A DNA stretch of 47,814 nucleotides, from positions 1 to 47,814 of the forward strand of contig CALVOL010000002.1 of assembly GCA_944350285.1 (NCBI GenBank), read 5' to 3'. The notes below the pieces were generated by a model. The model worked only from the letters and a program-made list of their open reading frames with translations. It searched no databases and was not told where the DNA came from. Made by a program: the position numbers and the translations under genes. This DNA comes from an uncultured Bacilli bacterium (GTDB lineage Bacteria > Bacillota_I > Bacilli_A > RF39 > UBA660). Position 1 is the first letter of the stretch, and each line of letters starts with the position of its first letter. Shown in pieces: positions 14,385-40,759 of the stretch.

Positions 14385-15938
14385 TCAATCCTTTTTACTT
14401 TCTATCTCCACAAGTTTCTTTTCCATATCAATACGCATAAATATTGGTTCTGGATTCTCAACCTCATAGACAGTATCTTCACAAAAAGTATTATCTGCAT
14501 CTTCAACATGGATTTGTCTCAAAATTTCCTTGCTAGTATCAGGCATAAATGGAGCAAGTTCTGAGGCACAAACCTTAATACTTTCAAGCAAATGATAAAG
14601 TACGGTAAGAAGACGTTCTTCTTTATCTTCATCCTTCGCCAAAGACCAAGGCATAGTATCATCAATATACTTATTAGATTTTCTTAAAACATCAAAAATT
14701 GCATCAATAGACTTTCCAATTTCAAGATGATCCATACACTCATCCACTTTACCTGGAAGGTTTTGAATACTAGAAATAAATTCTTCATCCAAATCTTCTC
14801 GAATATTTTTATTTTCTACCTTACCATCAAAATATTTCTTTGCCATAGAAATAGTACGATTAACCAAATTTCCTAAGATATTAGCAAGATCCCCATTAAT
14901 ACGTTCAATAATCAGTTCATAATTAATGGTACCGTCATTAGCAAAAGGAATTTCATGAAGCACATAATAACGGATGGCATCAACCCCAAATAAGTGGACC
15001 AAGTCATCAGCATACATAATATTACCTTTACTCTTGCTCATTTTATCATTATTCATTAAAAGCCAAGGATGACCAAATACTTGTTTAGGCAAAGGCAAAT
15101 CTAAAGCCATTAATAAAATAGGCCAATAAATCGTATGAAAACGAATGATATCTTTACCGATCAAATGCAAATCAGCTGGCCACCATTTATGAAATTCTTC
15201 ACTTTCACCATCCACATCATACCCAATATTTGTAATATAATTCGATAATGCATCAATCCATACATAAACAACATGTTTATCATTAAAAGGAACTCTTACA
15301 CCCCAGTCAAAAGAAGTTCTAGAAACACACAAATCTTGAAGTCCTGGTTTCAAAAAGTTATTTAACATTTCATTTTTACGAGACTCTGGTTGAATAAATT
15401 CTGGATGAGTTTCAATATACTCTATTAAACGTTCTTGATATTTTGACATCTTAAAAAAATAAGCTTCTTCACTTCGTTTCTCAACATCTCTACCACAATC
15501 AGGACATTTTCCATCTACAAGTTGAGTTTCCGTCCAAAAAGATTCACAAGGAGTACAATACCATCCTTCATACTGCGATAAATAAATATCCCCTTGTTGA
15601 TACAACTTTTCAAAGATATGCTGAACTACTTCTTTATGATGAGAATCTGTTGTTCTAACAAACTTATCATAACTAGTATTCATAACATCCCAAATTCTTT
15701 TTATTTCCCGGGAAATATTATCCACAAACTCTTGAGGCTCTAACCCGGCTTCTTTCGCTTTTTGTTCTATTTTTTCACCATGTTCATCTGTTCCAGTCTG
15801 AAAATAAACATCAAATCCCCTTGCTCTTTTATAACGTGCAATCGCATCCGCCAAAACAATTTCATAAGTATTCCCAATATGAGGTTTACCAGAAGCATAA
15901 GCAATTGCTGTTGTAATATAATATTTTTCCATAAACAT
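14385..15938 (-). CDS. metG: Methionine--tRNA ligase (short form without C-terminal tRNA-binding domain)
   Basis: 517-aa ORF with HIGN (KPHIGNTYE), KMSKS and a Cys knuckle CTPC...CPDC. The true start may be Met3 (15932). Confidence 0.96.
   Translation of the reverse strand: MFMEKYYITTAIAYASGKPHIGNTYEIVLADAIARYKRARGFDVYFQTGTDEHGEKIEQKAKEAGLEPQEFVDNISREIKRIWDVMNTSYDKFVRTTDSHHKEVVQHIFEKLYQQGDIYLSQYEGWYCTPCESFWTETQLVDGKCPDCGRDVEKRSEEAYFFKMSKYQERLIEYIETHPEFIQPESRKNEMLNNFLKPGLQDLCVSRTSFDWGVRVPFNDKHVVYVWIDALSNYITNIGYDVDGESEEFHKWWPADLHLIGKDIIRFHTIYWPILLMALDLPLPKQVFGHPWLLMNNDKMSKSKGNIMYADDLVHLFGVDAIRYYVLHEIPFANDGTINYELIIERINGDLANILGNLVNRTISMAKKYFDGKVENKNIREDLDEEFISSIQNLPGKVDECMDHLEIGKSIDAIFDVLRKSNKYIDDTMPWSLAKDEDKEERLLTVLYHLLESIKVCASELAPFMPDTSKEILRQIHVEDADNTFCEDTVYEVENPEPIFMRIDMEKKLVEIESKKD
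15702..15717. promoter_or_regulatory. Noc-binding-site (NBS) palindrome TATTTCCCGGGAAATA, inside metG
   Basis: Perfect 16-bp palindrome containing the B. subtilis NBS core ATTTCCCGGGAAAT. It is read as N-I-S-R-E-I in metG. Confidence 0.7.
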
Positions 15939-15950
15939 CGTCCTCTCTAA

Positions 15951-16697
15951 TTAATATCCACCGTCTATCACAATATTTTCTCCATTAATATAAGTATTTT
16001 CTTCACTACTTAAATAGTATACTAAGCTAGCAATTTCTTCTGGCTCAGCAAACCTTTTTAAATAAATTTTAGAGCTTTCTTCTAAAATCAAATCTTTTTC
16101 TAAATCTTGGTTCATTTCCGTATTAATCCATCCAGGAGATACAGAATTTACTAAAATTTTAGGAGCATACTCAATCGCAAAATTTTTTGTTAAATTAATA
16201 ATAGCGGCTTTACTAGCATCATAATCAATACTGGTAGGAAAATTACAATCAATTCCATTAGTACTTGCAATATTCACAATTTTAGAAATATCACTACTAG
16301 AATACATTAGTTTACCAAAATATTTACACATTAAATATGTTCCTGTAATATTATTTCTAATTGTTTTCTCAAATAATTCAGTAGATCGTTTGCTAACGTC
16401 CATATCTTCTACAATTGCAGCATTATTAACTAAAACATTTAAATTCGAATACTGTGTTTTAAATTTTTCTAACATATTTAAAACATCAACCTCAACAGAG
16501 ACATTTCCACACAAAACCAATACTTTCACAGAATATTTTTTCTCAATATCAAATTTAATTTGTTTACATTCTGCTTCGTATTCCTTAAAATCATTAATAA
16601 CAACATCATATCCGTTTTGAGCAAATTTATAAGCGCAAGCCTTGCCTAGACCACGTCTAGTACCTGTAATTAAAGCTACTTTTGTCAACAACATCAT
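15951..16697 (-). CDS. Short-chain dehydrogenase/reductase (FabG-like SDR)
   Basis: Motifs TGTRRGLG (TGxxxGxG), NNAA and YDASKAA (YxxxK). The start is placed at MMLLTKVALITG, after the GGAAAGG SD. The ORF-track extension to 16745 runs through an NBS palindrome and the T-box terminator. Confidence 0.85.
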   Translation of the reverse strand: MMLLTKVALITGTRRGLGKACAYKFAQNGYDVVINDFKEYEAECKQIKFDIEKKYSVKVLVLCGNVSVEVDVLNMLEKFKTQYSNLNVLVNNAAIVEDMDVSKRSTELFEKTIRNNITGTYLMCKYFGKLMYSSSDISKIVNIASTNGIDCNFPTSIDYDASKAAIINLTKNFAIEYAPKILVNSVSPGWINTEMNQDLEKDLILEESSKIYLKRFAEPEEIASLVYYLSSEENTYINGENIVIDGGY

Positions 16698-16705
16698 CCT
16701 TTCCA

Positions 16706-16727
16706 AATTATTTCCCGGGAAATAATT
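16706..16727. promoter_or_regulatory. NBS palindrome, 22-bp extended form AATTATTTCCCGGGAAATAATT
   Basis: Perfect 22-bp palindrome lying between the T-box terminator T-run and the SDR Shine-Dalgarno. Confidence 0.7.
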
Positions 16728-16730
16728 AAA

Positions 16731-16925
16731 AAAAATCATAAACAAAAGGACGAGAAACCCGCGGTACCACCTTTATTTATGATTTTACTCATACACTTAT
16801 TACGATAACGGTGTAATCCGTTTCAACTCCAGAGCCATCTTCTATAGAATTCCATTATTTACTCTCAGCTAACGTAAACTCTCTTGAAATATCCTTCTAT
16901 ATACTCTTTCCTTCCTCATTGAATA
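16731..16925 (-). ncRNA. T-box riboswitch leader, probable Met specifier, controlling SDR-metG
   Basis: The minus strand carries the diagnostic T-box sequence GGTGGTACCGCG (plus 16761-16772). A long terminator helix AAAATCATAAATAAAGG/CCTTTTGTTTATGATTTT plus a T-run follows. AGAGA-type stem I elements are present, and GAAGAUGG supplies a candidate AUG specifier (16836-16838). Confidence 0.75.
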
Positions 16926-16930
16926 ACTTA

Positions 16931-16958
16931 ATTCTAACATAGAATTACAAAATGTCAA
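16931..16958 (-). promoter_or_regulatory. Sigma-A promoter for the T-box leader
   Basis: Minus strand has TTGACA (16953-16958), a 16-nt spacer, then TAGAAT (16931-16936) preceded by TGT (extended -10-like). It overlaps the 3' end of spoVT. Confidence 0.55.
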
Positions 16959-17472
16959 TTTTATTTACTAATAATTTTGCAATAAATTGCATAATTTTTT
17001 TCTTAGTTTCTTCGATTTCTTGTGACTCTTCAAGTAAGAGCAACCCTAAAGCATCTCCCGATACAATCAAAGGGATTACATAATAATAAGCTTCCTTCGA
17101 CGTAGTAGGAAATAAAACTTCCTTCACTTTAGAAACATAACTCTCCCTTTCTTCCAATAAACGATTTAATGTCGGATTATAAAGAGTATTTAAATAGTCT
17201 GGAACTAAACTCGCAACGACCTTATCTCGATCCATAACAAGAATAGATAATCCCATCGTATCATAAGCATATTGAATAATTGTCGTCGCAATATTTTCTA
17301 AAGAAAGAAGTAACGAAGTCTTTTTCAAACAAATACTTTGATTATCTACAAATATTTCTAAACTTTCTCCATCACGAATGCCTAAACTACGTCTCATTTC
17401 TTTAGGAATAACAACTCGACCTAATTCATCAATTTTTCGTACTACACCAATTTCTTTCACAAAAAGTTTCAC
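16945..17472 (-). CDS. spoVT: Stage V sporulation protein T (AbrB-type N-domain plus GAF-like domain)
   Basis: 175-aa ORF with the SpoVT/AbrB swapped-hairpin motif GRVVIPKEMRRSLGIRDGESLEIF. It lies directly downstream of mfd, as in B. subtilis. Confidence 0.88.
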   Translation of the reverse strand: MKLFVKEIGVVRKIDELGRVVIPKEMRRSLGIRDGESLEIFVDNQSICLKKTSLLLSLENIATTIIQYAYDTMGLSILVMDRDKVVASLVPDYLNTLYNPTLNRLLEERESYVSKVKEVLFPTTSKEAYYYVIPLIVSGDALGLLLLEESQEIEETKKKIMQFIAKLLVNKIDIL

Positions 17473-17509
17473 TCCAATCTAATAAGTAGTTTGGAGTGTT
17501 AAGAGTATT

Positions 17510-20500
17510 TTATACTTCTAAATCATCAAGAATTAATTGAAGTAACTTTACAACGTCATAAATAAAATGCTTTTTTTGTTGTAACAAGTTAAGTGATATT
17601 GTAATTTTTTTATTTTCATATTTTAAAGTAAACTTAGGATTAATATTATATGCTTCCAAAAACAACTTATCGCCCTTTATTTGACTAGAAATTTCTTCTG
17701 GTAAAGTAATTGCAATAAGTCTTTGATTTTGTACTACTTCAGTAATATTCATCCGCTCAGCAAGTTTCTCAAACCATTCCTCATACATATATACTTCCAT
17801 TTGAGGAGTTACTTGACCAAAACGATCAATAAGCTGTTCTTTTACATCAACAAGCTTTTTATAAGAATCAATTTCATTAATCATTTGATGTATCTCAATT
17901 TTTACTGTTTCATCAGACACATAATTATCTTCAATATGTGTTTCTACGCGAATTAAAAAATCTCCAGAATCTTCCTCTTCTACATATTCTCCCTTAAGTC
18001 TCTTCATTTCTTCTTCAATCATCTTCATATAAAGACTAATACCAACAGTATCTACAAAACCTGCCTGCTCACTTCCAAGCAAATCTCCTGCTCCCCGAAT
18101 CGACAAATCTCGCATTGCTATCTTGTATCCACTACCAAGTTCTGTAAAATCCCGAATTGCTTGCAATCTTTTTACAGCAATATCATTTAACATTTTAGTC
18201 CTATTATATAAAAGATAAGCATAAGCAATCCTGTCACTTCGTCCAACACGACCTCTTAATTGATAAAGCTGACTTAGTCCAAAACAATCTGCATCATAAA
18301 TAATAAGCGTATTTGCATTTGGTATATCAATTCCTGTTTCAATAATTGTCGTACTTACCAAAATATCAAAATCATGATTAATAAAACTTGTCATAATATC
18401 GTCTAACTCCATCTTTGACATCTGTCCATGAGCATAACGAATACGTGCTTCTGGCACTAATTTAGAAATATGATTTTGCATATCCTCTATAGTTTCAACT
18501 CGATTATATAAAACAAAAACTTGACCTTCGCGTGACAATTCTTTATAAATAGCATCTCTTACAATAAGATCACTTTCTTGAATCACATAGGTTTGTACCG
18601 GAGAACGATTCACAGGTGGAGTATCAATGATAGATAGGTCACGAAGACCAGATAAACTCATCTTAAGAGTTCGGGGAATTGGTGTTGCCGATAAAGTTAA
18701 AACATTCACATCCTCTTTTAATTTCTTTATTTTTTCTTTATGAGTAACACCAAAACGTTGCTCCTCATCAACAACCAACAATCCTAACTGCTTTGGTTTT
18801 AATTGATCACTAAGTAATCGATGTGTCCCAAATAAAATATCAATCTTACCCGATGCATACTCCTCTAAAATAATCCGGGCCTCTTTAGGAGTTGTAAAAC
18901 GATTAAATAAACGAATCTCTATCGGATAATTTCGAAATCGTTCAAGAGCTGATTCATACTGTTGTTTCGACAAAATGGTTGTCGGACAAAGATACATTAC
19001 CTGTCTATTATTACAAACTGTTTTAAACATAGCCCGAAACGCCACTTCTGTTTTACCAAAACCAACATCACCACAAAGTAATCGGTCCATAGGAACTGTG
19101 GAATCCAAATCATGCTTAATATCATCAATAGCTCTTAATTGATCCCTTGTCTCATCATATTGAAACTGTGAAGCAAACACATCTTCTTCTGCATAATCCT
19201 TATAAGCTTCCCCAACAATACTATTTCGTTTGGCATAAAGCTTAACAAGCTCTCCTGAAATATCTCGTATTTTCTTTTGAACTTGTTGTTTTTTCTTTTG
19301 CCAACTAACAGAGTCCAACTTATTAATTTGAGGTTTCATCCCATCCTTATCACTATATTTATAAATAGTTGAAATTTTTTCAACTGGAACATATACCTTA
19401 TCATTTCCCAAATAAGATATTTGCAAAAAATCCTTTTTCATTCCTTGTACAGTCAAAGTAATAACTCCAGCATAAATACCAATTCCATGAGTTCTATGTA
19501 CAACATAATCTCCAACTTGCAAAGAATCTAATTCTCGAATTTTCTTGCCAATATGCAAATTATTTTTATAACGAACCTCAGTCTTGACCTCTTCGATATC
19601 ATATGGACTAATAACTACAAAATTATCCCAAAGAAACCCTTTATATAACTTTCCTTTGACAATATTAACAACGCCCTCTTTAATATCAGAAAGAGGAACA
19701 ATAACTCCATCTACTAACTCTTTAATTTTATTGATTTGATTCGTTGTATCTAACACAAAAACAACTGTTTTTTTCTGAAATATTGACGTCTCAACATAAT
19801 CTTTTAACTTTTCATAATCAGATCGAAAATTAAAAAGTTCTTTTGTTTCAAAATGCATGACCTCTTTATCTAATGTTTGAGTAACCTGATTTAAATAAAG
19901 AGTATTAAAAGGCTTCAAATCTTCCATAGCCCAAAAATACTTTTTTTCTGTTCCTTGCTCTTTATTATAAAAAGAACTTTCTTCTAATAACTTTTCATAA
20001 CTAGCTATAATTTGTGGATATTCCATAAATAACGTAGTTGCGTCTGGCAAATAATTAAGTAAAGAACTATCGTTAGCTGTTTCAATTTCTTCAATTGGTC
20101 GGCATATGATTTCTTGAACCTCTTCCATCGTTCGTTGAGTCTCTGGATTAAAATAACGAATCGATTCAATATCATCTCCAAAAAATTCAATTCGGATAGG
20201 CAACTCTTCCTCAATTAAAAAGATATCTAAAACAAAACCACGCACAGCATACTCTCCTGTGCTAGTTACCATAGAATCTCTTTGATAACCTAATGACTCA
20301 AAGCGATTTACCAACTTATCTCGAGAAACCGACATTCCAGATTGAAGCGTTAACTTTAATTTTTCTTGTTCTACCCGCGAAGGAAGAAACTTTAAATATC
20401 CCATTAAATTAGTAACAACAATCGATTTTCCATTAGAAATTTTATCCAAGGTTTCTAATCTCTTCAATTTTAACTCAGGGGAAACAGCAAGCGCTACGGA

Positions 20501-20716
20501 AGTAAAAAAGTCATCCATTGGAAATAAATAAACATCAGAAGAATACCGACTTAATACCTTAAAAAACTTATTCGCATCATATAAATTAGCGGTAACTACA
20601 ACAATCGAACGATGCTCTTTCTTAAAACATTCTAACACGTAAAAAGCGGATAACTCTTCTGTTAACCCTTCACTAATAGTACCATTCACAAAACAAAATT
20701 GATCAAATAGATTCAT
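17510..20716 (-). CDS. mfd: Transcription-repair coupling factor Mfd
   Basis: 1068-aa ORF with the RNAP-interaction motif GDYVVHRTHGIG and helicase motifs GDVGFGKTEVA, VVDEEQRFG and LRGRVGRS. It follows pth, matching conserved synteny. Confidence 0.96.
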   Translation of the reverse strand: MNLFDQFCFVNGTISEGLTEELSAFYVLECFKKEHRSIVVVTANLYDANKFFKVLSRYSSDVYLFPMDDFFTSVALAVSPELKLKRLETLDKISNGKSIVVTNLMGYLKFLPSRVEQEKLKLTLQSGMSVSRDKLVNRFESLGYQRDSMVTSTGEYAVRGFVLDIFLIEEELPIRIEFFGDDIESIRYFNPETQRTMEEVQEIICRPIEEIETANDSSLLNYLPDATTLFMEYPQIIASYEKLLEESSFYNKEQGTEKKYFWAMEDLKPFNTLYLNQVTQTLDKEVMHFETKELFNFRSDYEKLKDYVETSIFQKKTVVFVLDTTNQINKIKELVDGVIVPLSDIKEGVVNIVKGKLYKGFLWDNFVVISPYDIEEVKTEVRYKNNLHIGKKIRELDSLQVGDYVVHRTHGIGIYAGVITLTVQGMKKDFLQISYLGNDKVYVPVEKISTIYKYSDKDGMKPQINKLDSVSWQKKKQQVQKKIRDISGELVKLYAKRNSIVGEAYKDYAEEDVFASQFQYDETRDQLRAIDDIKHDLDSTVPMDRLLCGDVGFGKTEVAFRAMFKTVCNNRQVMYLCPTTILSKQQYESALERFRNYPIEIRLFNRFTTPKEARIILEEYASGKIDILFGTHRLLSDQLKPKQLGLLVVDEEQRFGVTHKEKIKKLKEDVNVLTLSATPIPRTLKMSLSGLRDLSIIDTPPVNRSPVQTYVIQESDLIVRDAIYKELSREGQVFVLYNRVETIEDMQNHISKLVPEARIRYAHGQMSKMELDDIMTSFINHDFDILVSTTIIETGIDIPNANTLIIYDADCFGLSQLYQLRGRVGRSDRIAYAYLLYNRTKMLNDIAVKRLQAIRDFTELGSGYKIAMRDLSIRGAGDLLGSEQAGFVDTVGISLYMKMIEEEMKRLKGEYVEEEDSGDFLIRVETHIEDNYVSDETVKIEIHQMINEIDSYKKLVDVKEQLIDRFGQVTPQMEVYMYEEWFEKLAERMNITEVVQNQRLIAITLPEEISSQIKGDKLFLEAYNINPKFTLKYENKKITISLNLLQQKKHFIYDVVKLLQLILDDLEV

Positions 20717-20724
20717 AAATATCC

Positions 20725-21276
20725 CTACTTACTATTAAATAAATTCATAGTTTTAGAAATTCCCTCAGATAAAAAGGATAAAATAATATTTTGATAAACA
20801 GAATATTGATCTTTTAAAATGTTTAATTCCTGTTTTGAAAAAGTTCCTAATACATAATCTTTCGTATCCATACTTCTATCATGAGCGATTCCTATTTTTA
20901 ACCTTGCAAAATTTTGTGTTCCAAGTGAACTAATAATTGACTTAATTCCATTATGTCCCCCAGAAGAACTATCTATTTTACAACGATATTTTCCAAAAGG
21001 CAAATCCATATCATCTTGAATCACTAAGATATCTTCGATAGAAATTTTATAATAATCAACAAGTTTACGAACAGCAATACCACTTAAATTCATAAAAGTC
21101 GTTGGTTTTACAAACAAAACAGCTACCCCATCGATACAGTCTTTCTTAATATAAGCTTGAAACTTCTTTTCTAAAGTAAAATCATGCACAAAAGAATCCA
21201 AAACCATAAATCCAACATTATGTCTCGTATTTTGATATTCTTTCCCAACATTTCCCAATCCAACCACTAATTTCAT
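20725..21276 (-). CDS. pth: Peptidyl-tRNA hydrolase
   Basis: MKLVVGLGNVGKEYQNTRHNVGF is a canonical Pth N-terminus. The start is placed at this Met, 9 nt after the GGAAAGG SD. The ORF track extends 6 codons further from a TTG. Confidence 0.93.
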   Translation of the reverse strand: MKLVVGLGNVGKEYQNTRHNVGFMVLDSFVHDFTLEKKFQAYIKKDCIDGVAVLFVKPTTFMNLSGIAVRKLVDYYKISIEDILVIQDDMDLPFGKYRCKIDSSSGGHNGIKSIISSLGTQNFARLKIGIAHDRSMDTKDYVLGTFSKQELNILKDQYSVYQNIILSFLSEGISKTMNLFNSK

Positions 21277-21292
21277 GTATTTCATCCTTTCC

Positions 21293-21318
21293 AAAATTAT
21301 TTCCCGGGAAATAATTTT
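21293..21318. promoter_or_regulatory. NBS palindrome, 26-bp extended form AAAATTATTTCCCGGGAAATAATTTT
   Basis: Perfect 26-bp palindrome spanning the methyltransferase stop codon and the pth SD region. Confidence 0.7.
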
Positions 21319-22027
21319 ATTTTCTAAATATATTTTGATAACTTTCTTTATTTTCTATAGATAAAAAAGGTTTTACTTTACACCCAAATTTACCATCTTT
21401 CACAAGACAAACTAAAACAATAATTGGTGCTTCACTATCTTTAGATGATATAAACTGTATCTCCTTGATAGAAAAACCGTACTGATGGGCATACACGCAA
21501 ATTTCTTCGATACGTTCTGGAATATGTACTAAATAAAACCTTCCTTTAGCTTTTAATAAATAACTAGTTACTTTAATAAGTTGTTCTAAAGAAATCTTTA
21601 ATTCATGTCTGGCAATACCTTTCATAAGATTATCATTCACAAAATGCGTATGATGATACTTAAAATAAGGTGGATTCGATAAAACAACATCAAAATTATT
21701 TCCCGGGAAATAATTTTTTAACGCTAAAACATCGTCATTTATTATCTTAATTAATGATTCCATTGAATTATAAATCACTGACTCTTTAGCAAGATTAGCG
21801 ATCTCTTCTTGAATTTCCACGCCAATAACCTTTTTTTGATATTTGTGAGCCAATAAGATAGGAATGACTCCATTACCAGTACATAAATCTATAATTTGTT
21901 GATCATCTTTTTTAATAGTTGCAAACTCTGCTAACAAAATAGAATCTAAAGAAAATTTAAACCCATCTTGAAACTGATAAATTTTTAAATTAGGATAATC
22001 ATATAACCAATTAAGAACCTTTTTCAT
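21317..22027 (-). CDS. SAM-dependent N6-adenine methyltransferase, YabB/TrmN6-like (tRNA1(Val) m6A37 type)
   Basis: 236-aa ORF with the SAM motif DLCTGNGVIP and the catalytic NPPY (VLSNPPYFKY). Confidence 0.8.
   Translation of the reverse strand: MKKVLNWLYDYPNLKIYQFQDGFKFSLDSILLAEFATIKKDDQQIIDLCTGNGVIPILLAHKYQKKVIGVEIQEEIANLAKESVIYNSMESLIKIINDDVLALKNYFPGNNFDVVLSNPPYFKYHHTHFVNDNLMKGIARHELKISLEQLIKVTSYLLKAKGRFYLVHIPERIEEICVYAHQYGFSIKEIQFISSKDSEAPIIVLVCLVKDGKFGCKVKPFLSIENKESYQNIFRK
21692..21717. promoter_or_regulatory. NBS palindrome, 26-bp form, inside the methyltransferase gene
   Basis: Identical 26-mer to the one at 21293-21318. It is read as K-N-Y-F-P-G-N-N-F just upstream of the NPPY motif. 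Confidence 0.7.
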
Positions 22028-22799
22028 CTAAATATATTTCCTTTACTTCATCGTTCACTACAACTTTATAACGACGATTTAAAATATCAATACTAATAAC
22101 AGTTCCAGTTCCATAAGGTGTTTCCATTACTGCTCCAACACTAGGCATTCCATTAGAACATTCTTCATATTGTTCATCTTCATAAGCTAAACAACATAAA
22201 AGCCTACCACAACACCCATTAATTTTAGATGGGTTAAGAGCCAAATTCTGATTTTTAGCCATACTCATAGAAACAGAATCCATATGACTTAAAAAAGAAG
22301 AGCAACAAAGTTCACGACCACAAATACCAACTCCGCCTATATTACTCGCTTTATCACGCGCTCCAACTTGGCGAAGTTCTATTCTAGTATGATAAATACT
22401 AGCTAATTTACGAGCAAGTTCACGAAAATCCACTCTTTCATCTGCATAAAAATTAAAAAGTAACTGCTTTCTATCAAAAGTAAAACTTGCATCAATAAAG
22501 TTCATTTGAAGATCTAACTCCGTACTGAATTCCTTAGCTTTTCCTAACGCTTCTTTGGCATCTTTTAAATTAGTCAAATACTGTTCATAATCCTTTTTGG
22601 TAGCAATACGAATAATATTTTTTAAAGATTCTTTATCTATTTTCATATCAGTTTGTTTCAATTTTGAAACAACTCTTCCAAATTGAAGACCACGCTCCGT
22701 ATCAACAATAACAGTAACACGTAATGGAATTCGTAAATTTTGACCATTGAAATAATATACTTTTCCATGATCTTTAAAACTTACACCATAAATATTCAT
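22011..22799 (-). CDS. ricT: PSP1-domain protein RicT/YaaT
   Basis: 262-aa ORF with Cys clusters GICGRELCCSSFL and GCCGRLLCCLAYE. It follows holB as in B. subtilis and overlaps the next gene by 17 nt. Confidence 0.9.
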   Translation of the reverse strand: MNIYGVSFKDHGKVYYFNGQNLRIPLRVTVIVDTERGLQFGRVVSKLKQTDMKIDKESLKNIIRIATKKDYEQYLTNLKDAKEALGKAKEFSTELDLQMNFIDASFTFDRKQLLFNFYADERVDFRELARKLASIYHTRIELRQVGARDKASNIGGVGICGRELCCSSFLSHMDSVSMSMAKNQNLALNPSKINGCCGRLLCCLAYEDEQYEECSNGMPSVGAVMETPYGTGTVISIDILNRRYKVVVNDEVKEIYLDEKGS

Positions 22800-23647
22800 T
22801 ATTTTTCACTCCCTTCTAATACAAATCGGTCTAAAATGAAAGAAATATTTAAATTATAATTTAATTCATCAAGAATTTCATTTAATAAATCAAGTCGTTT
22901 TAAAAAATATTGTTTATCTTTCTTTAATAAAAAACGTAACTCCTCTAAAGATTCATCTAATTCACCGAACGTCTTAGCCAAATATAATTGATGAAAAATA
23001 TCAAAAAGACTTTGAAATAAATATAAAAGTTCTTTTCTGTCATGAATTAAGGGAATTAAAACATCCTTATTATAAAGCATAGCACCATCAAAAGCCACTG
23101 CAATTTCTTTAATATAATTTATTGCAATAGATTTCCATACCTTAGGAATCGTATTATGTTCTCCTCCAGCATAATAATCTAATAAGATTTGACATCGACT
23201 GCGCACCGTATCAATAATATTTTCTTTATTATTAGTAATAAAAAATCCTAAAATATAATCCTCTGGTTCTTCAATAAACTTTAACATCGTATTAGCACTA
23301 GAAGCATTTAAACACTCAGCATTTTCTATAATATACACATTATATTTAGAAAATGTTGGTTTTGTTTGAAAAAGATGTTTTAATTCTAAAATTTGTTCTT
23401 TCTTAATCGTTGTCGTTTCTGGGGAAACAAATACTAAACTAGGTAAATTTCTAGTTTCTATCAAATGACAAAGATTACATTCCGTACAATCTTCGCGAAA
23501 TTCTTGAGGACAATTAATGACTTTTAAAAACTGCAATAAATTTTCAACACATTTTTCCTGATCATTTGTTTCAATCAAAAAAGCATGAGCCAAACATCCC
23601 TCACGATAACTAGTTAATAATTGTTGTACTGCCTCTTTTTCTTGCAC
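22799..23647 (-). CDS. holB: DNA polymerase III subunit delta prime
   Basis: 282-aa AAA+-like ORF with AHAFLIE, IIENAE..L and the SRCQ sensor. It lies upstream of ricT. Confidence 0.8.
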   Translation of the reverse strand: MQEKEAVQQLLTSYREGCLAHAFLIETNDQEKCVENLLQFLKVINCPQEFREDCTECNLCHLIETRNLPSLVFVSPETTTIKKEQILELKHLFQTKPTFSKYNVYIIENAECLNASSANTMLKFIEEPEDYILGFFITNNKENIIDTVRSRCQILLDYYAGGEHNTIPKVWKSIAINYIKEIAVAFDGAMLYNKDVLIPLIHDRKELLYLFQSLFDIFHQLYLAKTFGELDESLEELRFLLKKDKQYFLKRLDLLNEILDELNYNLNISFILDRFVLEGSEK

Positions 23648-23663
23648 ATGAATTCACCAATTA

Positions 23664-23852
23664 CTATTTTACAATAAAAAACAAAATAATTAAAGAAGAA
23701 AGCCCAGGAATTCCAAGCAAAGTAACGACGCCTACTGTAATAAAATTAATTGGAATATAAATATTTAGTGACGACAAAAAATAATTAAACGCATACAACA
23801 TTAAAAAAGCTAAAACAATTTTTCTAACCACATTATAAATTTTTTTCTTCAT
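23664..23852 (-). CDS. bofA: Pro-sigma-K processing inhibitor BofA
   Basis: 62-aa two-TM ORF ending GVVTLLGIPGLSSLIILFFIVK. It lies downstream of recR, as bofA does in B. subtilis. Confidence 0.7.
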   Translation of the reverse strand: MKKKIYNVVRKIVLAFLMLYAFNYFLSSLNIYIPINFITVGVVTLLGIPGLSSLIILFFIVK

Positions 23853-23894
23853 AGTAGAATCCCTCTACAAAAAAATATGAAAAAACATCGGTTT

Positions 23895-24500
23895 TTATTC
23901 CGATATTTTTTTACGATCCTCTAATGCTTTATCAATAGTAAACATATCCAAATAATCAATTTCTGCACCACTTGGAAGCCCATAAGAAAGTCTACTAATC
24001 GTGACACCTTGATTCTCAAAGATTTTTTTAATATATAGCGTAGTAGTTTCTCCCTCTATGGAACTTTTTAATGCTAAAATTAACTCCGGATGATCAAGCT
24101 TCTCAACCCTTTTTACAAGAGAATTCAAATTAATATCATCAGCCCCAATATTATCCATTGGAGAAATCAAATTATTTAAAACATGATAGACGCCTTTAAA
24201 ATTACCCGCTTTTTCAAATGCAAAAGCGCTTTTATAATCCTCTACCACACAAATCAAACTATGATCACGTAATTCATCTAAACAAATAGAACAAATTTCT
24301 TGATCAGTTAAATAACCACAAATAGAACAAGGTTTCAAATTTTTTTTAGCAAAAATTAACATTTGACTAGCACTTTCGAGCTCTTCTAAGGGAAGTTCCA
24401 AACTAGCCAAAGCCATCCTTTCTGCACTTTTTTCACCAATTCCTGGTAGCTTTTTAAAAAATTCTTTTAAAGATTCAAAAGATTCTGGATAAACAGCCAT
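23895..24500 (-). CDS. recR: Recombination protein RecR
   Basis: 201-aa ORF with HhH LPGIGEKSAERMA, the Cys4 finger CSICGY...CSIC and the Toprim ICVVED. Confidence 0.96.
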   Translation of the reverse strand: MAVYPESFESLKEFFKKLPGIGEKSAERMALASLELPLEELESASQMLIFAKKNLKPCSICGYLTDQEICSICLDELRDHSLICVVEDYKSAFAFEKAGNFKGVYHVLNNLISPMDNIGADDINLNSLVKRVEKLDHPELILALKSSIEGETTTLYIKKIFENQGVTISRLSYGLPSGAEIDYLDMFTIDKALEDRKKISE

Positions 24501-24501
24501 A

Positions 24502-24798
24502 TTACATCAAACCATCTAACATACCAGCATATTGTCCTAATTTAGCTTCATACTCTTTTTCAATTTTTTGAATAGAATCCTTTACTGCCATAATAATAAA
24601 GTCTTCTAGCATTTCAATATCTTCTTTTGCTAATTCTTCTTTGTTAATCTTACAACTAACCATTTCTTTCTTACCATTTAAAGTAACTTCTACAAATTCA
24701 TATTTCCCGGGAAATAATTGCCCGCTTATTTCATCTTTCTTTTTTTGTAAATCTCTTTGCATTCTTTGTGCTTGTTGCATAATACTTTGCATATTCAT
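24502..24798 (-). CDS. ybaB: Nucleoid-associated protein YbaB/EbfC (YaaK)
   Basis: 98-aa ORF with an M/Q-rich N-terminus MQSIMQQAQRMQRDLQKKKDE and a dimerisation core. Synteny is dnaX-ybaB-recR. Confidence 0.92.
   Translation of the reverse strand: MNMQSIMQQAQRMQRDLQKKKDEISGQLFPGKYEFVEVTLNGKKEMVSCKINKEELAKEDIEMLEDFIIMAVKDSIQKIEKEYEAKLGQYAGMLDGLM
24701..24716. promoter_or_regulatory. NBS palindrome TATTTCCCGGGAAATA, inside ybaB
   Basis: Perfect 16-bp palindrome. The higher-coordinate arm continues to match the extended consensus (..AATT). It is read as L-F-P-G-K-Y in ybaB. Confidence 0.7.
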
Positions 24799-27080: not shown

Positions 27081-27110
27081 ATGTTTCACGTGAAACATCA
27101 GTTATTAACA
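27081..27110 (+). promoter_or_regulatory. parS unit a: TGTTTCACGTGAAACA plus TTATTAACA
   Basis: Perfect palindromic parS 16-mer at 27082-27097. After a 3-nt gap (CAG) comes TTATTAACA, which matches TTATCCACA at 7/9. Confidence 0.75.
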
Positions 27111-27167
27111 AAAAACATCATTTATGATTTTAATATTTATTCTTCTACAATTTAAATACAGCAAATT

Positions 27168-27196
27168 ATGTTCCACGTGGAACGTTGTTATCCACC
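27168..27196 (+). promoter_or_regulatory. parS unit b: TGTTCCACGTGGAACG plus TTATCCACC
   Basis: parS 16-mer at 27169-27184, one position off palindromic symmetry. A TG spacer is followed by an 8/9 DnaA box at 27188-27196. Confidence 0.75.
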
Positions 27197-27361
27197 TCTT
27201 TTTTTTAATTAAAATGAAAGTTTCATTTTTTGAAAAAAATACTAAAAATTTAAAAAATAAGAGTAAAAAAATAAATAAAATCGCATTTTGACTATAAAAA
27301 GCCTCCTTATCAACAAAAAAATATCAATAAATATAAAATTAATAATCCATAATGTTATCAT

Positions 27362-27390
27362 ATGTTTCACGTGGAACATTGTTATCCACT
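27362..27390 (+). promoter_or_regulatory. parS unit c: TGTTTCACGTGGAACA plus TTATCCACT
   Basis: parS 16-mer at 27363-27378. A TG spacer is followed by an 8/9 DnaA box at 27382-27390. Confidence 0.8.
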
Positions 27391-27655
27391 TTTATTTTCA
27401 GACTAATTTTTTAATTAAAATTTAAACTATTACAGGTAATTATGAACTATTTCCAAAACAAACTAATTATCAACACAACCACAAAAAAAATTAAATCGCA
27501 TTTTTATAAATAGCTAAATTAAAAATATATAAATTAATAAAAACAATAAGAAATAGCAAAAAAAGTATTAAAATCTAGATGTTTTTAAAAAATTTTAAAT
27601 AGAATTTAACTTTATATTAAGAAAATAGTATTTATATACAAAATATTTTTATTTA

Positions 27656-27684
27656 ATGTTTCACGTGAAACATAGTTATTCACT
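27656..27684 (+). promoter_or_regulatory. parS unit d: TGTTTCACGTGAAACA plus TTATTCACT
   Basis: Perfect palindromic parS at 27657-27672. An AG spacer is followed by a 7/9 DnaA box at 27676-27684. Confidence 0.75.
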
Positions 27685-27752
27685 TGCAATTAATTCGAAT
27701 AAAAAAATGATTTATAATTAATTATCTTTCTATTTACAAGAATTTTATAGGA

Positions 27753-27783
27753 ATGTTCCACGTGGAACATTCACTTATTAACA
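27753..27783 (+). promoter_or_regulatory. parS unit e: TGTTCCACGTGGAACA plus TTATTAACA
   Basis: Perfect palindromic parS at 27754-27769. After a 4-nt gap comes TTATTAACA (27775-27783, 7/9). Confidence 0.7.
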
Positions 27784-27952
27784 ATTTTATTTAAGTTCAA
27801 TACATAAACTTATACACTCAATACTTTTTTAATTAAATTTAACAAAATTTATCAAGATCAATATAAACTTTTTAAGAAATAACAGTATTTATACATATAA
27901 AAGCTACACATCAATAAAAATCAAATCATTTTTCTTTATTACATTTTATTCT

Positions 27953-27981
27953 ATGTTTCACGTGGAACATTGTTATCCAGT
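27953..27981 (+). promoter_or_regulatory. parS unit f: TGTTTCACGTGGAACA plus TTATCCAGT
   Basis: parS at 27954-27969. A TG spacer is followed by TTATCCAGT (7/9) at 27973-27981. Confidence 0.75.
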
Positions 27982-28189
27982 TTTAAATACATAAAAAAAT
28001 CAAATCAAAATAAATTAATTCTATTAAAAATAATATATAAAAATATAAATAAAAATAAAATGATAATGGTATAAAATAAATAAAGTTATACACGAAAGCA
28101 GCAAAAGAATTAACTCAAAATCATATTTTACAAACAATTCTTTTCAAGATTTATAGTGAAAGGTTTGATTTAGCATTATTAAATACATT

Positions 28190-28218
28190 ATGTTCCACGT
28201 GAAACATAGTTATCCACA
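28190..28218 (+). promoter_or_regulatory. parS unit g: TGTTCCACGTGAAACA plus perfect DnaA box TTATCCACA
   Basis: The parS at 28191-28206 is identical to the B. subtilis spo0J-type site as I recall it. An AG spacer is followed by a 9/9 DnaA box at 28210-28218. Confidence 0.85.
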
Positions 28219-28226
28219 TCTTGCCA

Positions 28227-28244
28227 ATGTTCCACGTGAAACAT
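28227..28244. promoter_or_regulatory. parS unit h: TGTTCCACGTGAAACA (no adjacent box)
   Basis: parS at 28228-28243, 37 bp centre to centre from unit g and 19 nt beyond the gyrA stop codon. Confidence 0.8.
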
Positions 28245-35542: not shown

Positions 35543-35623
35543 GGTGGATAATGTGGATAACTTTGAATATCCCTTATAAATTCCACATCCATTGTCGAAT
35601 TTTGTCGTGGATAACTATTCACA
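35543..35623. promoter_or_regulatory. oriC downstream DnaA-box cluster (dnaA-dnaN spacer)
   Basis: GGTGGATAA (35543-35551, 8/9), TGTGGATAA (35552-35560, 9/9 reverse box), CGTGGATAA (35606-35614, 8/9) and CTATTCACA (35615-35623, 7/9). Confidence 0.8.
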
Positions 35624-35642
35624 TTTCAAAAAGTTACGCACA

Positions 35643-37034
35643 TTACATCTTATTTTGTATCTCTTTAATCTGATTTGCTACCATAGGATTCTCCTTAATA
35701 TCCATAGCTATTTTATCACAAGCGTGGATAACTGTCGAATGGTCTCGTCCACCAAACTCAAGCCCTATTCGATTTAAGTTTTCCTCCGTAAGTTGTCGTG
35801 ATAAATACATCGCAATTTGTCTTGGATAAGCAATATCTGCACTTCTTCTCTTTCCTTTTAAGTCATCTACCGTAATTTTAAAGTAATCAGCTACTGCTTT
35901 TTGAATTCCCTCAATACTATTAGTTTTATAGATATTGTGATTAACGTAATCCCCAAGTGCCTCAATTGCAAAATTTAAATCGACTTTCTCTGGAACAATC
36001 ATTGCTGTATAGGCCATTAACCGGTTCAGCGCTCCTTCTAAAAATCGAACATCATTTTGACAATTATTTGCGATATATTCAATAACATTTTCATCAATTC
36101 TAGTCGAAATTGTCATATTTTTAAGCTTAGCTGTAATAATTTTACATCGCAAATCAAAGTCCGGTGGATAAATATCTACAGGAAGTCCCCACATAAACCG
36201 ACTTCTAAGCCTTTCTTCTAACAATTTCAAGTCATCAGGACTCCGGTCAGAACTAATAATAATCTGTTTATTTGCTTGATGTAAGGCATTGAAAGTATGG
36301 AAAAATTCTTGCTGAGTCTTTTCAGCACCGACAAGATACTGAATATCATCAATAATTAATACGTCTACTTCCCTATATTTCTTTTTAAAATTAGCCGCAC
36401 TTTGAATATTATTCTTATTATCACTATTTATAATGTTGATGTATTCATCTTTGAACATTTCACTTGTTGTGTATAACACCTTTTTTTTCGTGTGTTCTAC
36501 TATATAATTGCCTATCGCATGCATTAAATGAGTTTTTCCTAGTCCACTCTTTCCGTAGATAAATAAAGGGTTATGCACTTTTCCCGGTTGCTCCGCAACA
36601 ATCATCCCAGCCGTTTTAGCTAGTCGATTAGAATCCCCTACTACATAGTTATTAAAGTTTAATTCAGGAATTAAATTCGTTTCCCATTCTTCATAAGTAG
36701 TCTCTACATTATCTACATAAGTAGGAATTGGAGAAAAGTTATCCACATTATCCACATTTTTCTGAACTTCTAATAAATCATCATCAATTTCCTCTTTTAA
36801 TAAAAATTCAAATTCATAATTATGATTAGATACTTTATAAAAAGCATCATCAATTAAATTATAATAATTAGTTGTAAGAATTCGTTTATGTATTTCCATT
36901 GGAACTTGAATATATACTTTATTATCTTTAATCTTAATAAGCTTTAAATCATTAAACCAAGCATGAAAAGAAGCGGAATTTACTTCTGGATAAATTTCAT
37001 TTAATACCGATTGCCAAAGATCTTTTTCATCCAT
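35643..37034 (-). CDS. dnaA: Chromosomal replication initiator protein DnaA
   Basis: Start placed at MDEKDLWQSVL after a GGGGTGG SD. Walker A GKSGLGKTHL, Walker B LIIDDIQ, and the domain IV segment IAYPRQIAMYLSRQLT...FGGRDHSTVIHA are present. The ORF-track start at 37100 is an extension. Confidence 0.97.
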   Translation of the reverse strand: MDEKDLWQSVLNEIYPEVNSASFHAWFNDLKLIKIKDNKVYIQVPMEIHKRILTTNYYNLIDDAFYKVSNHNYEFEFLLKEEIDDDLLEVQKNVDNVDNFSPIPTYVDNVETTYEEWETNLIPELNFNNYVVGDSNRLAKTAGMIVAEQPGKVHNPLFIYGKSGLGKTHLMHAIGNYIVEHTKKKVLYTTSEMFKDEYINIINSDNKNNIQSAANFKKKYREVDVLIIDDIQYLVGAEKTQQEFFHTFNALHQANKQIIISSDRSPDDLKLLEERLRSRFMWGLPVDIYPPDFDLRCKIITAKLKNMTISTRIDENVIEYIANNCQNDVRFLEGALNRLMAYTAMIVPEKVDLNFAIEALGDYVNHNIYKTNSIEGIQKAVADYFKITVDDLKGKRRSADIAYPRQIAMYLSRQLTEENLNRIGLEFGGRDHSTVIHACDKIAMDIKENPMVANQIKEIQNKM

Positions 37035-37116
37035 TAAACCACCCCGCTTCACATTTATCAACATTATTCTACACTTTTTTCTCTCTCTTTCCAAGCACAA
37101 ATTACCAAAACTTCAC

Positions 37117-37244
37117 TTTTCCACAACTTATCAACATTACAACCCAGCATAAAACCTACAAAAAAAGCAGTTATCCACATTATCCACAAATTTTTATTCA
37201 CATCGAAGTGTATAAGTGAAAACTGTGTATAAAAATTATCCACA
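37117..37244. promoter_or_regulatory. oriC upstream DnaA-box cluster (dnaA-rpmH spacer)
   Basis: TTTTCCACA (37117-37125), TTATCAACA (37128-37136), tandem perfect TTATCCACA boxes (37171-37179 and 37180-37188), TTATTCACA (37194-37202) and a perfect TTATCCACA (37236-37244). Confidence 0.88.
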
Positions 37245-37362
37245 TGATGTGAATATGTGTATAAATGTCGAAATATGTCGATAAAATAAGGAAAAATAAA
37301 AGAAACAAAATGTGAATAGTTATAAACAATAAGATTTTAACTGTCCAGATTTCAAGAAAAGA

Positions 37363-39708: not shown

Positions 39709-40664
39709 ATGAAAATTACAAAAGCTTATCAGTTTCGACTTTATCCAACTAAGGAACAGGAAATACTCATTCATAAAACATTTGGATGTACAAGATTTCT
39801 ATATAATCAAATGTTAGAGGAGTAAAAGAAAGCTATCGGACTAATTGTAATAGAAGTAGTTATAAAGAAAAAGAATATGCTAGTATTGAAGTAGATATGA
39901 AAGAAAAAACAATTACTTTACCTAAATTAAAGAAAGTAAAAATAAGAGGATATCGTAATTTAGAACAGTTACCAGGAAGAATACTTAATGCCACGATAAA
40001 ACAAGTAGGATATAAATACTATGTAAGTGTTTGTGTCGAAGAAGAAGTAGAAATTCCTGTTATGAGTGAGAAACGAGCTATCGGGATTGATGTTGGAGTC
40101 AAAAACATGGTAGTGACTAGTGATGGTGAGTATTATGAGAATCCTGATTTTCTAAAGAAATATGAAAGAAGAATCCAAGGGTATCAACAAGAATTATCCA
40201 GAAGAAAAAAAGGAAGTAAAAACTATGAGAAAACTTTAAGAAAAATAGAAGAACTCTATCGAAAACTCAAAAACGCAAGAAAGAAATATCTAGAAGAAGT
40301 TGTATCTAAGATATTAAAAGGAAAAGAAATTATATTAGCAGAAAGATTAAAAGTCAAAGAGATGTTATCCAAAGAAAAGAATCCCAAAAGTGTAAGAAAG
40401 AGTATTAGTAATGTTAGTTTTCAAACAATCTTACAAACAATAGAGTACAAATGTAAATGGAGTGGGAAGACGTTTCATCAAATATCTACTTATTATCCAA
40501 GTAATCAAATCTGTAGTGAATGTGGATATAAAGATAACACCATGAAAGATTATGGAAAAAGAGAATACATTTGTCCGGTTTGTAAGACGAAGATAGAAAG
40601 GGACTACAATGCAAGTAGAAATATTTTACAAGAGGGATTAAGAGAGATAAAGATAGCATCATAA
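39709..40664 (+). pseudogene. tnpB: IS200/IS605-family TnpB (OrfB) RNA-guided nuclease gene, disrupted
   Basis: The N-terminal 38 codons MKITKAYQFRLYPTKEQEILIHKTFGCTRFLYNQMLEE end in TAA at 39823-39825. The 255-aa ORF at 39897-40664 keeps RuvC-I GIDVGVKN, RuvC-II LAERLKVKEM, the Zn finger CSECG...CPVC and RuvC-III RDYNASRNI. Only about 70 nt link the two parts, where roughly 100 aa would be expected. Confidence 0.8.
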
Positions 40665-40759
40665 ATAAAATGAAATAAAAAATAGTACGGGGGCGACCCT
40701 CGGAAATGTGGTCTCTGTAAAAAGAGAAAAGGAATACCGTGAGGTATTCCAAGGGAAGA

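Follow-up and report, generated by a model that had tools for sequence, protein, structure and literature searches.

Clustered Noc-Binding-Site Palindromes near the Replication Origin of an Uncultured Bacilli Bacterium as Predicted Loading Sites for a Noc-Derived ParB-Family Protein

Perfect Noc-Binding Sites in the Window

The window analyzed here is the whole 47,814-nucleotide stretch of DNA from an uncultured Bacilli bacterium (GenBank assembly GCA_944350285.1, contig CALVOL010000002.1, positions 1 to 47,814), and it spans a Firmicute-type origin. The genes dnaA, dnaN, recF, gyrB, and gyrA lie on its minus strand, and rnpA, yidC, jag, mnmE, and mnmG lie on its plus strand. Our subject is a set of five perfect palindromes in this DNA, each containing the 16-mer TATTTCCCGGGAAATA, which is the Noc-binding site (NBS) of Bacillus subtilis, together with the ParB-family protein predicted to bind them. 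The five sites are as follows (RBS, ribosome-binding site; SDR, short-chain dehydrogenase/reductase).

NBS 1, 15702-15717: perfect TATTTCCCGGGAAATA by sequence reading, inside metG, codons N-I-S-R-E-I
NBS 2, 16706-16727: 22-bp perfect palindrome AATTATTTCCCGGGAAATAATT, flanked by the 3' end of a T-box leader on one side and the RBS of an SDR gene on the other
NBS 3, 21293-21318: perfect palindrome of 26 bp, in the intergenic spacer between trmN and pth, a few nucleotides (nt) upstream of the pth RBS
NBS 4, 21692-21717: perfect palindrome of 26 bp, within the gene for a trmN-like methyltransferase, codons Y-F-P-G-N-N
NBS 5, 24701-24716: perfect 16-mer TATTTCCCGGGAAATA inside ybaB/ebfC, codons L-F-P-G-K-Y

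The hexamer CCCGGG was found five times in the 47.8-kb window, at 15707, 16714, 21303, 21702, and 24706, against 0.35 expected per window and a largest count of 2 in shuffled sequences. Every occurrence is the center of a perfect ATTTCCCGGGAAAT and sits within TATTTCCCGGGAAATA, and 16 of the 16 bases are those of the NBS used in Noc work. From base composition, simple arithmetic gives an expectation for the 16-mer of ~1e-5 per window, and the probability that five uniformly placed sites in 47.8 kb all fall within 9 kb is 0.005. The motif is all-or-none, since a search allowing up to 3 mismatches returned no degenerate NBS copies in the window. No further NBS was found in the remaining ~39 kb of the window or in 10 kb past its right edge.

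An earlier sequence-only reading had claimed that the window holds just five CCCGGG hexamers, each centering the same perfect palindrome, which the count, the shuffles, and the mismatch search bore out. Its coordinates and its extension of the middle three sites to 22-26 bp agreed with our direct reading of the DNA, and its statement that the 16-mer contains the B. subtilis NBS holds, the sequences being identical. It had also placed the sites 12-21 kb from oriC. GC skew and DnaA-box clusters confirmed this placement, with the sites 12.5-21.5 kb away.

The T-box leader that precedes NBS 2 lies at 16743-16928 on the minus strand and scored 119 bits with Rfam. In the window, an SDR gene (15951-16745) separates this leader and NBS 2 from metG. 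In the closest metagenome-assembled genomes (MAGs; loci L005 and L006), the T-box leader and NBS lie directly upstream of metG.

Origin Setting and Composite Arrays

The origin was placed near 37 kb because the GC skew switches sign at ~37 kb and DnaA-box clusters flank dnaA. The features that set this frame are listed below (SRP, signal recognition particle).

oriC region, 35543-37276: DnaA-box clusters on both sides of dnaA and the GC-skew sign change; the reference point for distances
DnaA-box clusters, 35543-35606 and 37117-37276: flanking dnaA
dnaA, 35643-37100, minus strand
parS array, 27082-28243: eight TGTTNCACGTGNAACA sites with 0-2 mismatches, in a 1.2-kb noncoding gap between the SRP RNA gene and gyrA

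The five palindromes differ from the parS consensus TGTTNCACGTGAAACA at two positions in each half-site and are thus distinct from parS, and they share with ParB-parS systems the clustering of sites near oriC. In the window, a 9-mer resembling a DnaA box comes ~3 nt after most of the parS sites. A perfect DnaA box, TTATCCACA, occupies 15718-15726 and directly abuts NBS 1 in metG. The same box, TTATCCACA, lies 7 nt away from the trmN NBS in two relatives (L022 and L023).

Arrays of parS next to NBS are conserved in relatives, where 2-14 parS are present and many arrays also hold NBS. Some arrays are built from repeated units. Locus L055 carries five copies of a unit in which parS is followed after 1 nt by TGTGGATAA, a DnaA box, and after a further 3 nt by NBS; L050 carries four mirrored copies. 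L088 has five units of parS, 12 nt, and NBS, and L145 has eight NBS and six parS. Overall, DnaA boxes abut 25% of 364 parS and 14% of 321 NBS, compared with ~1.5% expected.

Conservation and Selection at the DNA Level

We compared the window with 34 species-level genomes whose Mfd proteins are 59-98% identical to that encoded here. The closest, at 98%, is a chicken-gut MAG of Candidatus Ventrenecus avicola, and the other 33 are uncultured "Bacilli/Tenericutes" MAGs of gut and rumen origin. This clade name, uncultured Bacilli/"Tenericutes", follows the record titles; NCBI taxonomy places Ca. Ventrenecus under "Bacteria incertae sedis" only. Perfect NBS recur in the same slots across the 34 genomes, and CCCGGG in those loci almost always belongs to an NBS. 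The trmN slot of NBS 4 is the most widely conserved (32 loci), and the ybaB/ebfC slot of NBS 5 is kept in 23 loci.

The 16-mer is translated in all three frames, as L-F-P-G-K-Y in ybaB, Y-F-P-G-N-N in trmN, and N-I-S-R-E-I in metG. A protein-coding explanation for the shared 16-mer was rejected because three different frames are used. The 16-mer is invariant across ~20 species while nearby synonymous sites vary. Among species carrying it, third-codon positions were invariant at 15 of 15 positions inside the 16-mer and at 5 of 13 in flanking amino-acid-invariant codons (Fisher p = 4e-4). It is written in the rarest codons of the genome, with CCC serving 3% of Pro, TCC 3% of Ser, and CGG 6% of Arg. 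Losses of the 16-mer are single synonymous changes, and outgroups have other residues at those positions. These patterns indicate that selection acts on the NBS DNA.

Noncoding sites, from loci not selected on their flanks, read AAT-16mer-ATT with 80-100% conservation per position; the functional unit in the clade is therefore taken to be the 22-bp palindrome. Conservation of the flanks beyond the 16-bp core, which the sequence-only reading had remarked on, was thereby upheld.

Distribution of the Sites

Counting over all loci, the origin gene block holds 300 of 318 NBS. Metagenome contigs scanned blind to context, with only the 22-bp extended form, yielded at least 120 loci. Among the matches listed, origin-block genes were present at 108 of 120 loci (~90%); 93 loci had genes of the dnaN-gyrA-tadA-dnaX-ybaB-trmN-pth-mfd-metG side, and 14 had genes of the rnpA-jag-mnmE-mnmG-rsmG-noc side only. 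Of the remaining 12 loci, again among the matches listed, two are short parS/NBS arrays and two share their contigs with the origin block. Six of the 12 flank polA, including L096, which is on an origin-block contig ~18 kb from its parS array. The 22-mer matches are not repeated sampling of one ancestral site, since the orthologous trmN site accounts for 7 of 166 matches among those listed and the genomes have Mfd identities of 36-69%. Among the matches listed, the 26 contigs that measure at least 100 kb (~5.1 Mb in total) each had a single NBS neighborhood of at most 21 kb.

The polA-flanking loci (L047, L079, L096, L128, L129, and L135) belong to another AT-rich lineage, in which extended NBS lie between polC and polA or between polA and mutM. 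At each of these sites, the full palindrome is accompanied by an additional half-site, TTATTTCCC.

In B. subtilis, ~70 NBS are spread over the greater part of the chromosome, and in Staphylococcus aureus, 41 Noc peaks lie no more than 700 kb to either side of the origin, and each spreads over 8-10 kb. Measured against these numbers, the local density of five sites in 9 kb stands well above that of the known systems, as the sequence-only reading had proposed. Across the DNA examined, the sites keep to the origin block, which argues against the scatter over most of the chromosome, with depletion near the terminus only, that is a feature of Noc systems. They are concentrated in a few tens of kilobases around oriC in a centromere-like fashion, and the NBS distribution in the clade looks origin-restricted rather than scattered.

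A Noc-Type Protein Encoded Downstream of rsmG

Contigs of the same species, from other samples and encoding an identical MnmG, carry rsmG followed by one ParB-family gene. This gene starts ~0.5 kb past the right end of the window (L002, 5764-6972), and its product has 402 amino acids (aa). The protein contains ParB_N and HTH_ParB domains (PF02195 and PF17762; HTH, helix-turn-helix), and its best PDB match is Geobacillus Noc (7ng0, 4e-57), ahead of Thermus Spo0J. Its GERR and ENxQR (ENIQR) CTPase motifs are invariant in 18 orthologs. The ParB/Srx N-terminal CTPase domain (GERRxRA, ENLQR) and the HTH of a Noc are both in place. An AlphaFold2 model showed a ParB-like N-domain and HTH with a C-terminal dimerization-type fold.

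Specificity in this family depends on four residues, QKKR in Noc and RTAG in ParB, and one Lys at 179 or 184 is sufficient (Jalal et al., PMC7383237). The recognition region, SQSSIANKLRLLNL...SERHAR, corresponds to Q173/K179/N184/R201 (Q-K-N-R). Three of the four Noc residues (Q173, K179, K184, and R201) are therefore identical, and binding to NBS is predicted from them.

The N terminus departs from this pattern. An N-terminal amphipathic membrane-targeting helix (aa 1-10/14) is reported to be conserved in all Noc proteins examined and is needed for membrane binding and function (PMC4331003). The protein described here starts 3 aa before the position aligned to Noc residue 25-27, an in-frame stop lies 15 nt upstream, and all orthologs begin MNTE(E/Q)K. 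We concluded from the late start, the upstream stop, and the shared start of the orthologs that it has no such helix. It instead contains a ~130-aa acidic linker with the invariant motifs PNKFFNFLEDEAA, IEVLDD, and PF(L/F)F. The first of these, also read as PNKFFNFLEDEAAxMxM, has a hydrophobic moment of ~0.5-0.6. A membrane motif may have been relocated into this linker, replacing the N-terminal helix.

In gene order, a noc lies in the origin cluster after gidB/rsmG and ahead of soj-spo0J. The noc-like gene follows rsmG, but neither parA nor a second parB was found within 10 kb of it. A tblastn search for ParA and ParB with Spo0J and Soj probes returned hits only in distant loci (L082 and L084). 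One of these, L084 (5969-8597), from a more distant AT-rich relative, has a canonical noc-soj-spo0J operon, and its Noc also lacks the N-terminal helix. The Noc of L082 starts with MKIPFFNQ, which is helix-like. A sequence on a 2.5-kb ENA contig (P0038) joins a canonical ParB N-terminus, MAVKKSGLGKGLDSLIP..., at EIIAGERRY to Ventrenecus Noc-like sequence; this chimera is probably an assembly artifact.

A cognate-type ParB-family protein is thus encoded in this species. The sequence-only reading had anticipated a noc gene after rsmG just beyond the right edge, and the other contigs of the species confirmed it. It had also named the lack of a Noc/ParB paralogue with NBS-type specificity residues among the findings that would undo it, and the Q-K-N-R set and the Geobacillus match support the presence of such a paralogue. 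Its identification of the palindromes as Noc sites was upheld, with two qualifications. Membrane tethering for nucleoid occlusion is not established because the protein lacks the N-terminal amphipathic helix, and the sites of this clade look origin-restricted. By sequence, the protein is a Noc-derived variant rather than a canonical Noc, since it combines Noc-type specificity with the absence of one defining Noc feature.

Interpretation and Alternatives

The palindromes are probably loading sites for a Noc-derived CTP clamp that would build an origin-specific domain, both in this organism, which is close to Ca. Ventrenecus avicola, and across a broad set of uncultured, AT-rich Bacilli of the gut. 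The Noc-type clamp encoded downstream of rsmG would nucleate on each palindrome, as its recognition residues predict. By analogy with the established biochemistry of ParB and Noc, it would then close with CTP and slide. With five sites within 9 kb and a sliding clamp, the loaded regions would merge into one continuous nucleoprotein domain of ~15-25 kb, which would stand beside the ParB-parS domain. Such a domain may mark, organize, or anchor the origin region. Candidate roles include a local block to division, an origin tether through the linker motif, organization of the origin without ParA, and control of DnaA.

Several observations weigh against this interpretation. Position 184 of the protein is Asn rather than Lys, and the N-terminal helix that B. 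subtilis Noc needs is missing. The noc-like gene comes from other contigs of the species, beyond the window edge. AlphaFold2 modeled the linker motif PNKFFNFLEDEAA as an isolated helix with low confidence (predicted local distance difference test, pLDDT, ~50). No ParB that would read the parS array was found, and a search with the P0038 N-terminus returned fragments of 73-76% identity. The long-contig result concerns the 22-bp form only, and many of those contigs come from distant relatives. NBS distant from the origin may also occur in this organism, the DNA examined being the window, 10 kb to its right, and the contigs of relatives.

Under canonical nucleoid occlusion, the 9-kb cluster would be only the densest patch of a wider set of sites, and the protein would tether DNA to the membrane and block Z rings. 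The NBS sequence and the HTH residues do match Noc, known Noc systems are enriched toward the origin, and a conserved amphipathic-looking linker motif exists. The DNA of this organism that was examined, the window plus 10 kb, also falls short of a whole genome. However, the N-terminal amphipathic helix is absent in every ortholog, ~90% of the context-blind sites are at the origin with one neighborhood per long contig (among the matches listed), and the window has no degenerate sites. We consider canonical occlusion unlikely. Control of replication initiation overlaps with the loading of a Noc-derived clamp and differs in the downstream role, favoring initiation over segregation or occlusion. 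Here, the siting of NBS and parS beside DnaA boxes would let complexes of the Noc-like protein and of ParB modulate how DnaA binds or is titrated, much as datA or the DnaA-box clusters (DBCs) do. Boxes for DnaA adjoin parS and NBS at 10-17 times the expected frequency, with a fixed 1-4 nt spacing in tripartite units, and in the window a perfect box is in contact with the metG NBS. In S. aureus, Noc holds initiation back and has minor peaks around dnaA. Nevertheless, an adjacent DnaA box was present at only 14% of NBS, four of the five window sites lack one, the metG-adjacent box overlaps conserved V-D-N codons, and the functional role is read from sequence patterns. As the principal function of the sites, initiation control appears rather unlikely, with a little more in its favor than canonical occlusion.

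Two readings dispense with a Noc-type protein altogether. The palindromes could act as RNA hairpins, as terminators, or as operators of an unrelated regulator for pth, metG, or other genes. Two sites lie just upstream of RBSs, one of them follows a T-box leader, and perfect palindromes can fold. Three sites, however, are in open reading frames (ORFs) and in three different frames, and all 16 bases are those of the NBS, with a cognate HTH encoded nearby. Folding is predicted to be weak, at -3 to -12 kcal/mol with z between -2.9 and +1.0, and at two sites the minimum-free-energy fold ignores the palindrome. No terminator was called at any of the five NBS, and Rfam searches around the sites returned only the T-box and SRP RNA. 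The weak folds and lack of terminator calls gave no support to the hairpin and terminator version, which was rejected, and an element of this general kind is very improbable. The CCCGGG core and the several identical copies could also recall a mobile repeat, either a repetitive extragenic palindrome (REP) or a miniature inverted-repeat transposable element (MITE), or the footprint of a SmaI/XmaI-type restriction-modification system. Repeats of the REP/MITE type are typically numerous, scattered, imperfect, and mostly intergenic, with common flanks. Yet the copies here have no common flanks past 3-5 bp and no insertion relative to orthologous proteins, their positions are syntenic over deep divergence, and CCCGGG outside NBS is as rare as composition predicts. 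Synteny, the in-frame placement of three of the five sites within genes, and the lack of degenerate copies led us to reject both possibilities, to which we attach almost no weight. The sequence-only reading had named a REP/MITE-like spread as one of the findings that would undo it; the palindrome instead lacks degenerate copies, occupies in-frame positions in conserved genes, and is limited to a few syntenic slots.

Returning to the Noc-derived clamp, we also considered an extended form of this explanation. In it, the Noc of a large, uncultured group of AT-rich gut Bacilli would be a second, origin-specific ParB-like clamp instead of a factor for nucleoid occlusion across the whole chromosome, and NBS, parS, and DnaA boxes would form a composite "super-centromere" that ties the organization or anchoring of the origin to initiation control. 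In some lineages, tripartite units with fixed spacing, repeated 5-8 times, are consistent with such an arrangement, which we put forward tentatively, as a possibility that is somewhat more likely to be wrong than right. The helix-less, origin-clustered form could be an intermediate between ParB and canonical Noc, or a reversion in which the membrane motif moved to the linker.

Comparison with Known Systems

The closest known system is Noc-NBS of B. subtilis and S. aureus. Shared with it are an identical 16-bp site, a ParB paralogue encoded next to rsmG, the Q, K, and R of the recognition helix, the CTPase motifs, a Noc-like C-terminal domain, and origin-biased sites. In contrast to that system, the protein described here has no N-terminal amphipathic helix, has a ~130-aa acidic linker with invariant short motifs, and carries Asn at 184, and no soj-spo0J lies downstream of its gene. 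The sites also differ. Here they are all perfect, extended to 22 bp, and within tens of kilobases of oriC, whereas the known systems have ~40-70 sites over megabases, and in relatives they are interleaved with parS and DnaA boxes.

Chromosomal ParB-parS clusters, as in Caulobacter, Corynebacterium, Streptomyces, and Myxococcus, consist of palindromes next to oriC that are bound by a ParB-family CTP clamp. The window sites resemble these centromeres in having several perfect palindromes near oriC, a ParB-family clamp, and one expected merged domain. They differ in that the NBS carries two changes per half-site, a separate parS array lies alongside, and no ParA partner was found in the vicinity.

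RacA-ram of B. subtilis and RicO-ricS of S. aureus likewise have origin-proximal site sets, and their proteins link the origin to the membrane or pole; RicO uses an amphipathic helix that is not N-terminal (bioRxiv 10.64898/2026.03.06.710092). This analogy is functional only. Their folds and motifs are unrelated to those described here, their sites extend over ~600-700 kb rather than tens of kilobases, and membrane binding in the present case is putative. DBCs of B. subtilis and datA of Escherichia coli are also DnaA-box clusters near but outside oriC, whereas the boxes observed here are fused to parS and NBS at fixed spacing.

Three things depart from the canonical system: the protein without its N-terminal helix, the lack of parA or parB nearby, and the distribution of the sites. 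No published account was found of origin-restricted NBS clusters, of a Noc without the helix, or of arrays combining parS, DnaA boxes, and NBS. Noc serves as the standard example of a ParB duplicate that gained a new DNA specificity, scattered sites, and a membrane anchor, and the path of this transition is an open question (Jalal et al. 2020). Because the present lineage combines the new specificity with centromere-like sites and has no N-terminal anchor, it makes the order of these evolutionary steps testable. The parS/DnaA-box/NBS arrays suggest direct cross-talk between partition-type clamps and the initiator, an idea that has so far come mainly from S. aureus and B. subtilis genetics. Clusters of perfect NBS with parS arrays may also offer an inexpensive way of marking oriC in MAGs from these uncultured bacteria of the gut.

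Neighboring Features of the Window

The window lacks the NBS that relatives conserve in the jag-mnmE slot (for example, L039 at 3750). At 39897-42662, this slot carries an insertion of a truncated TnpB-like ORF and an IS66-family transposase. A look-up of the exact product of this transposase retrieved no gene on record, and a look-up with the ORF at 117-1262 for a leftward extension of the window likewise retrieved nothing on record. The window MnmG (45099-47471) has 790 aa, with ~170 extra N-terminal residues that weakly match a GNAT acetyltransferase, and the MnmG of L039 has 621 aa. SpoIIR (L039, 20134-20640) and a SpoVT-like regulator (window, 16945-17472) are present in these "Tenericutes"-labeled MAGs, which hints at a capacity for sporulation.

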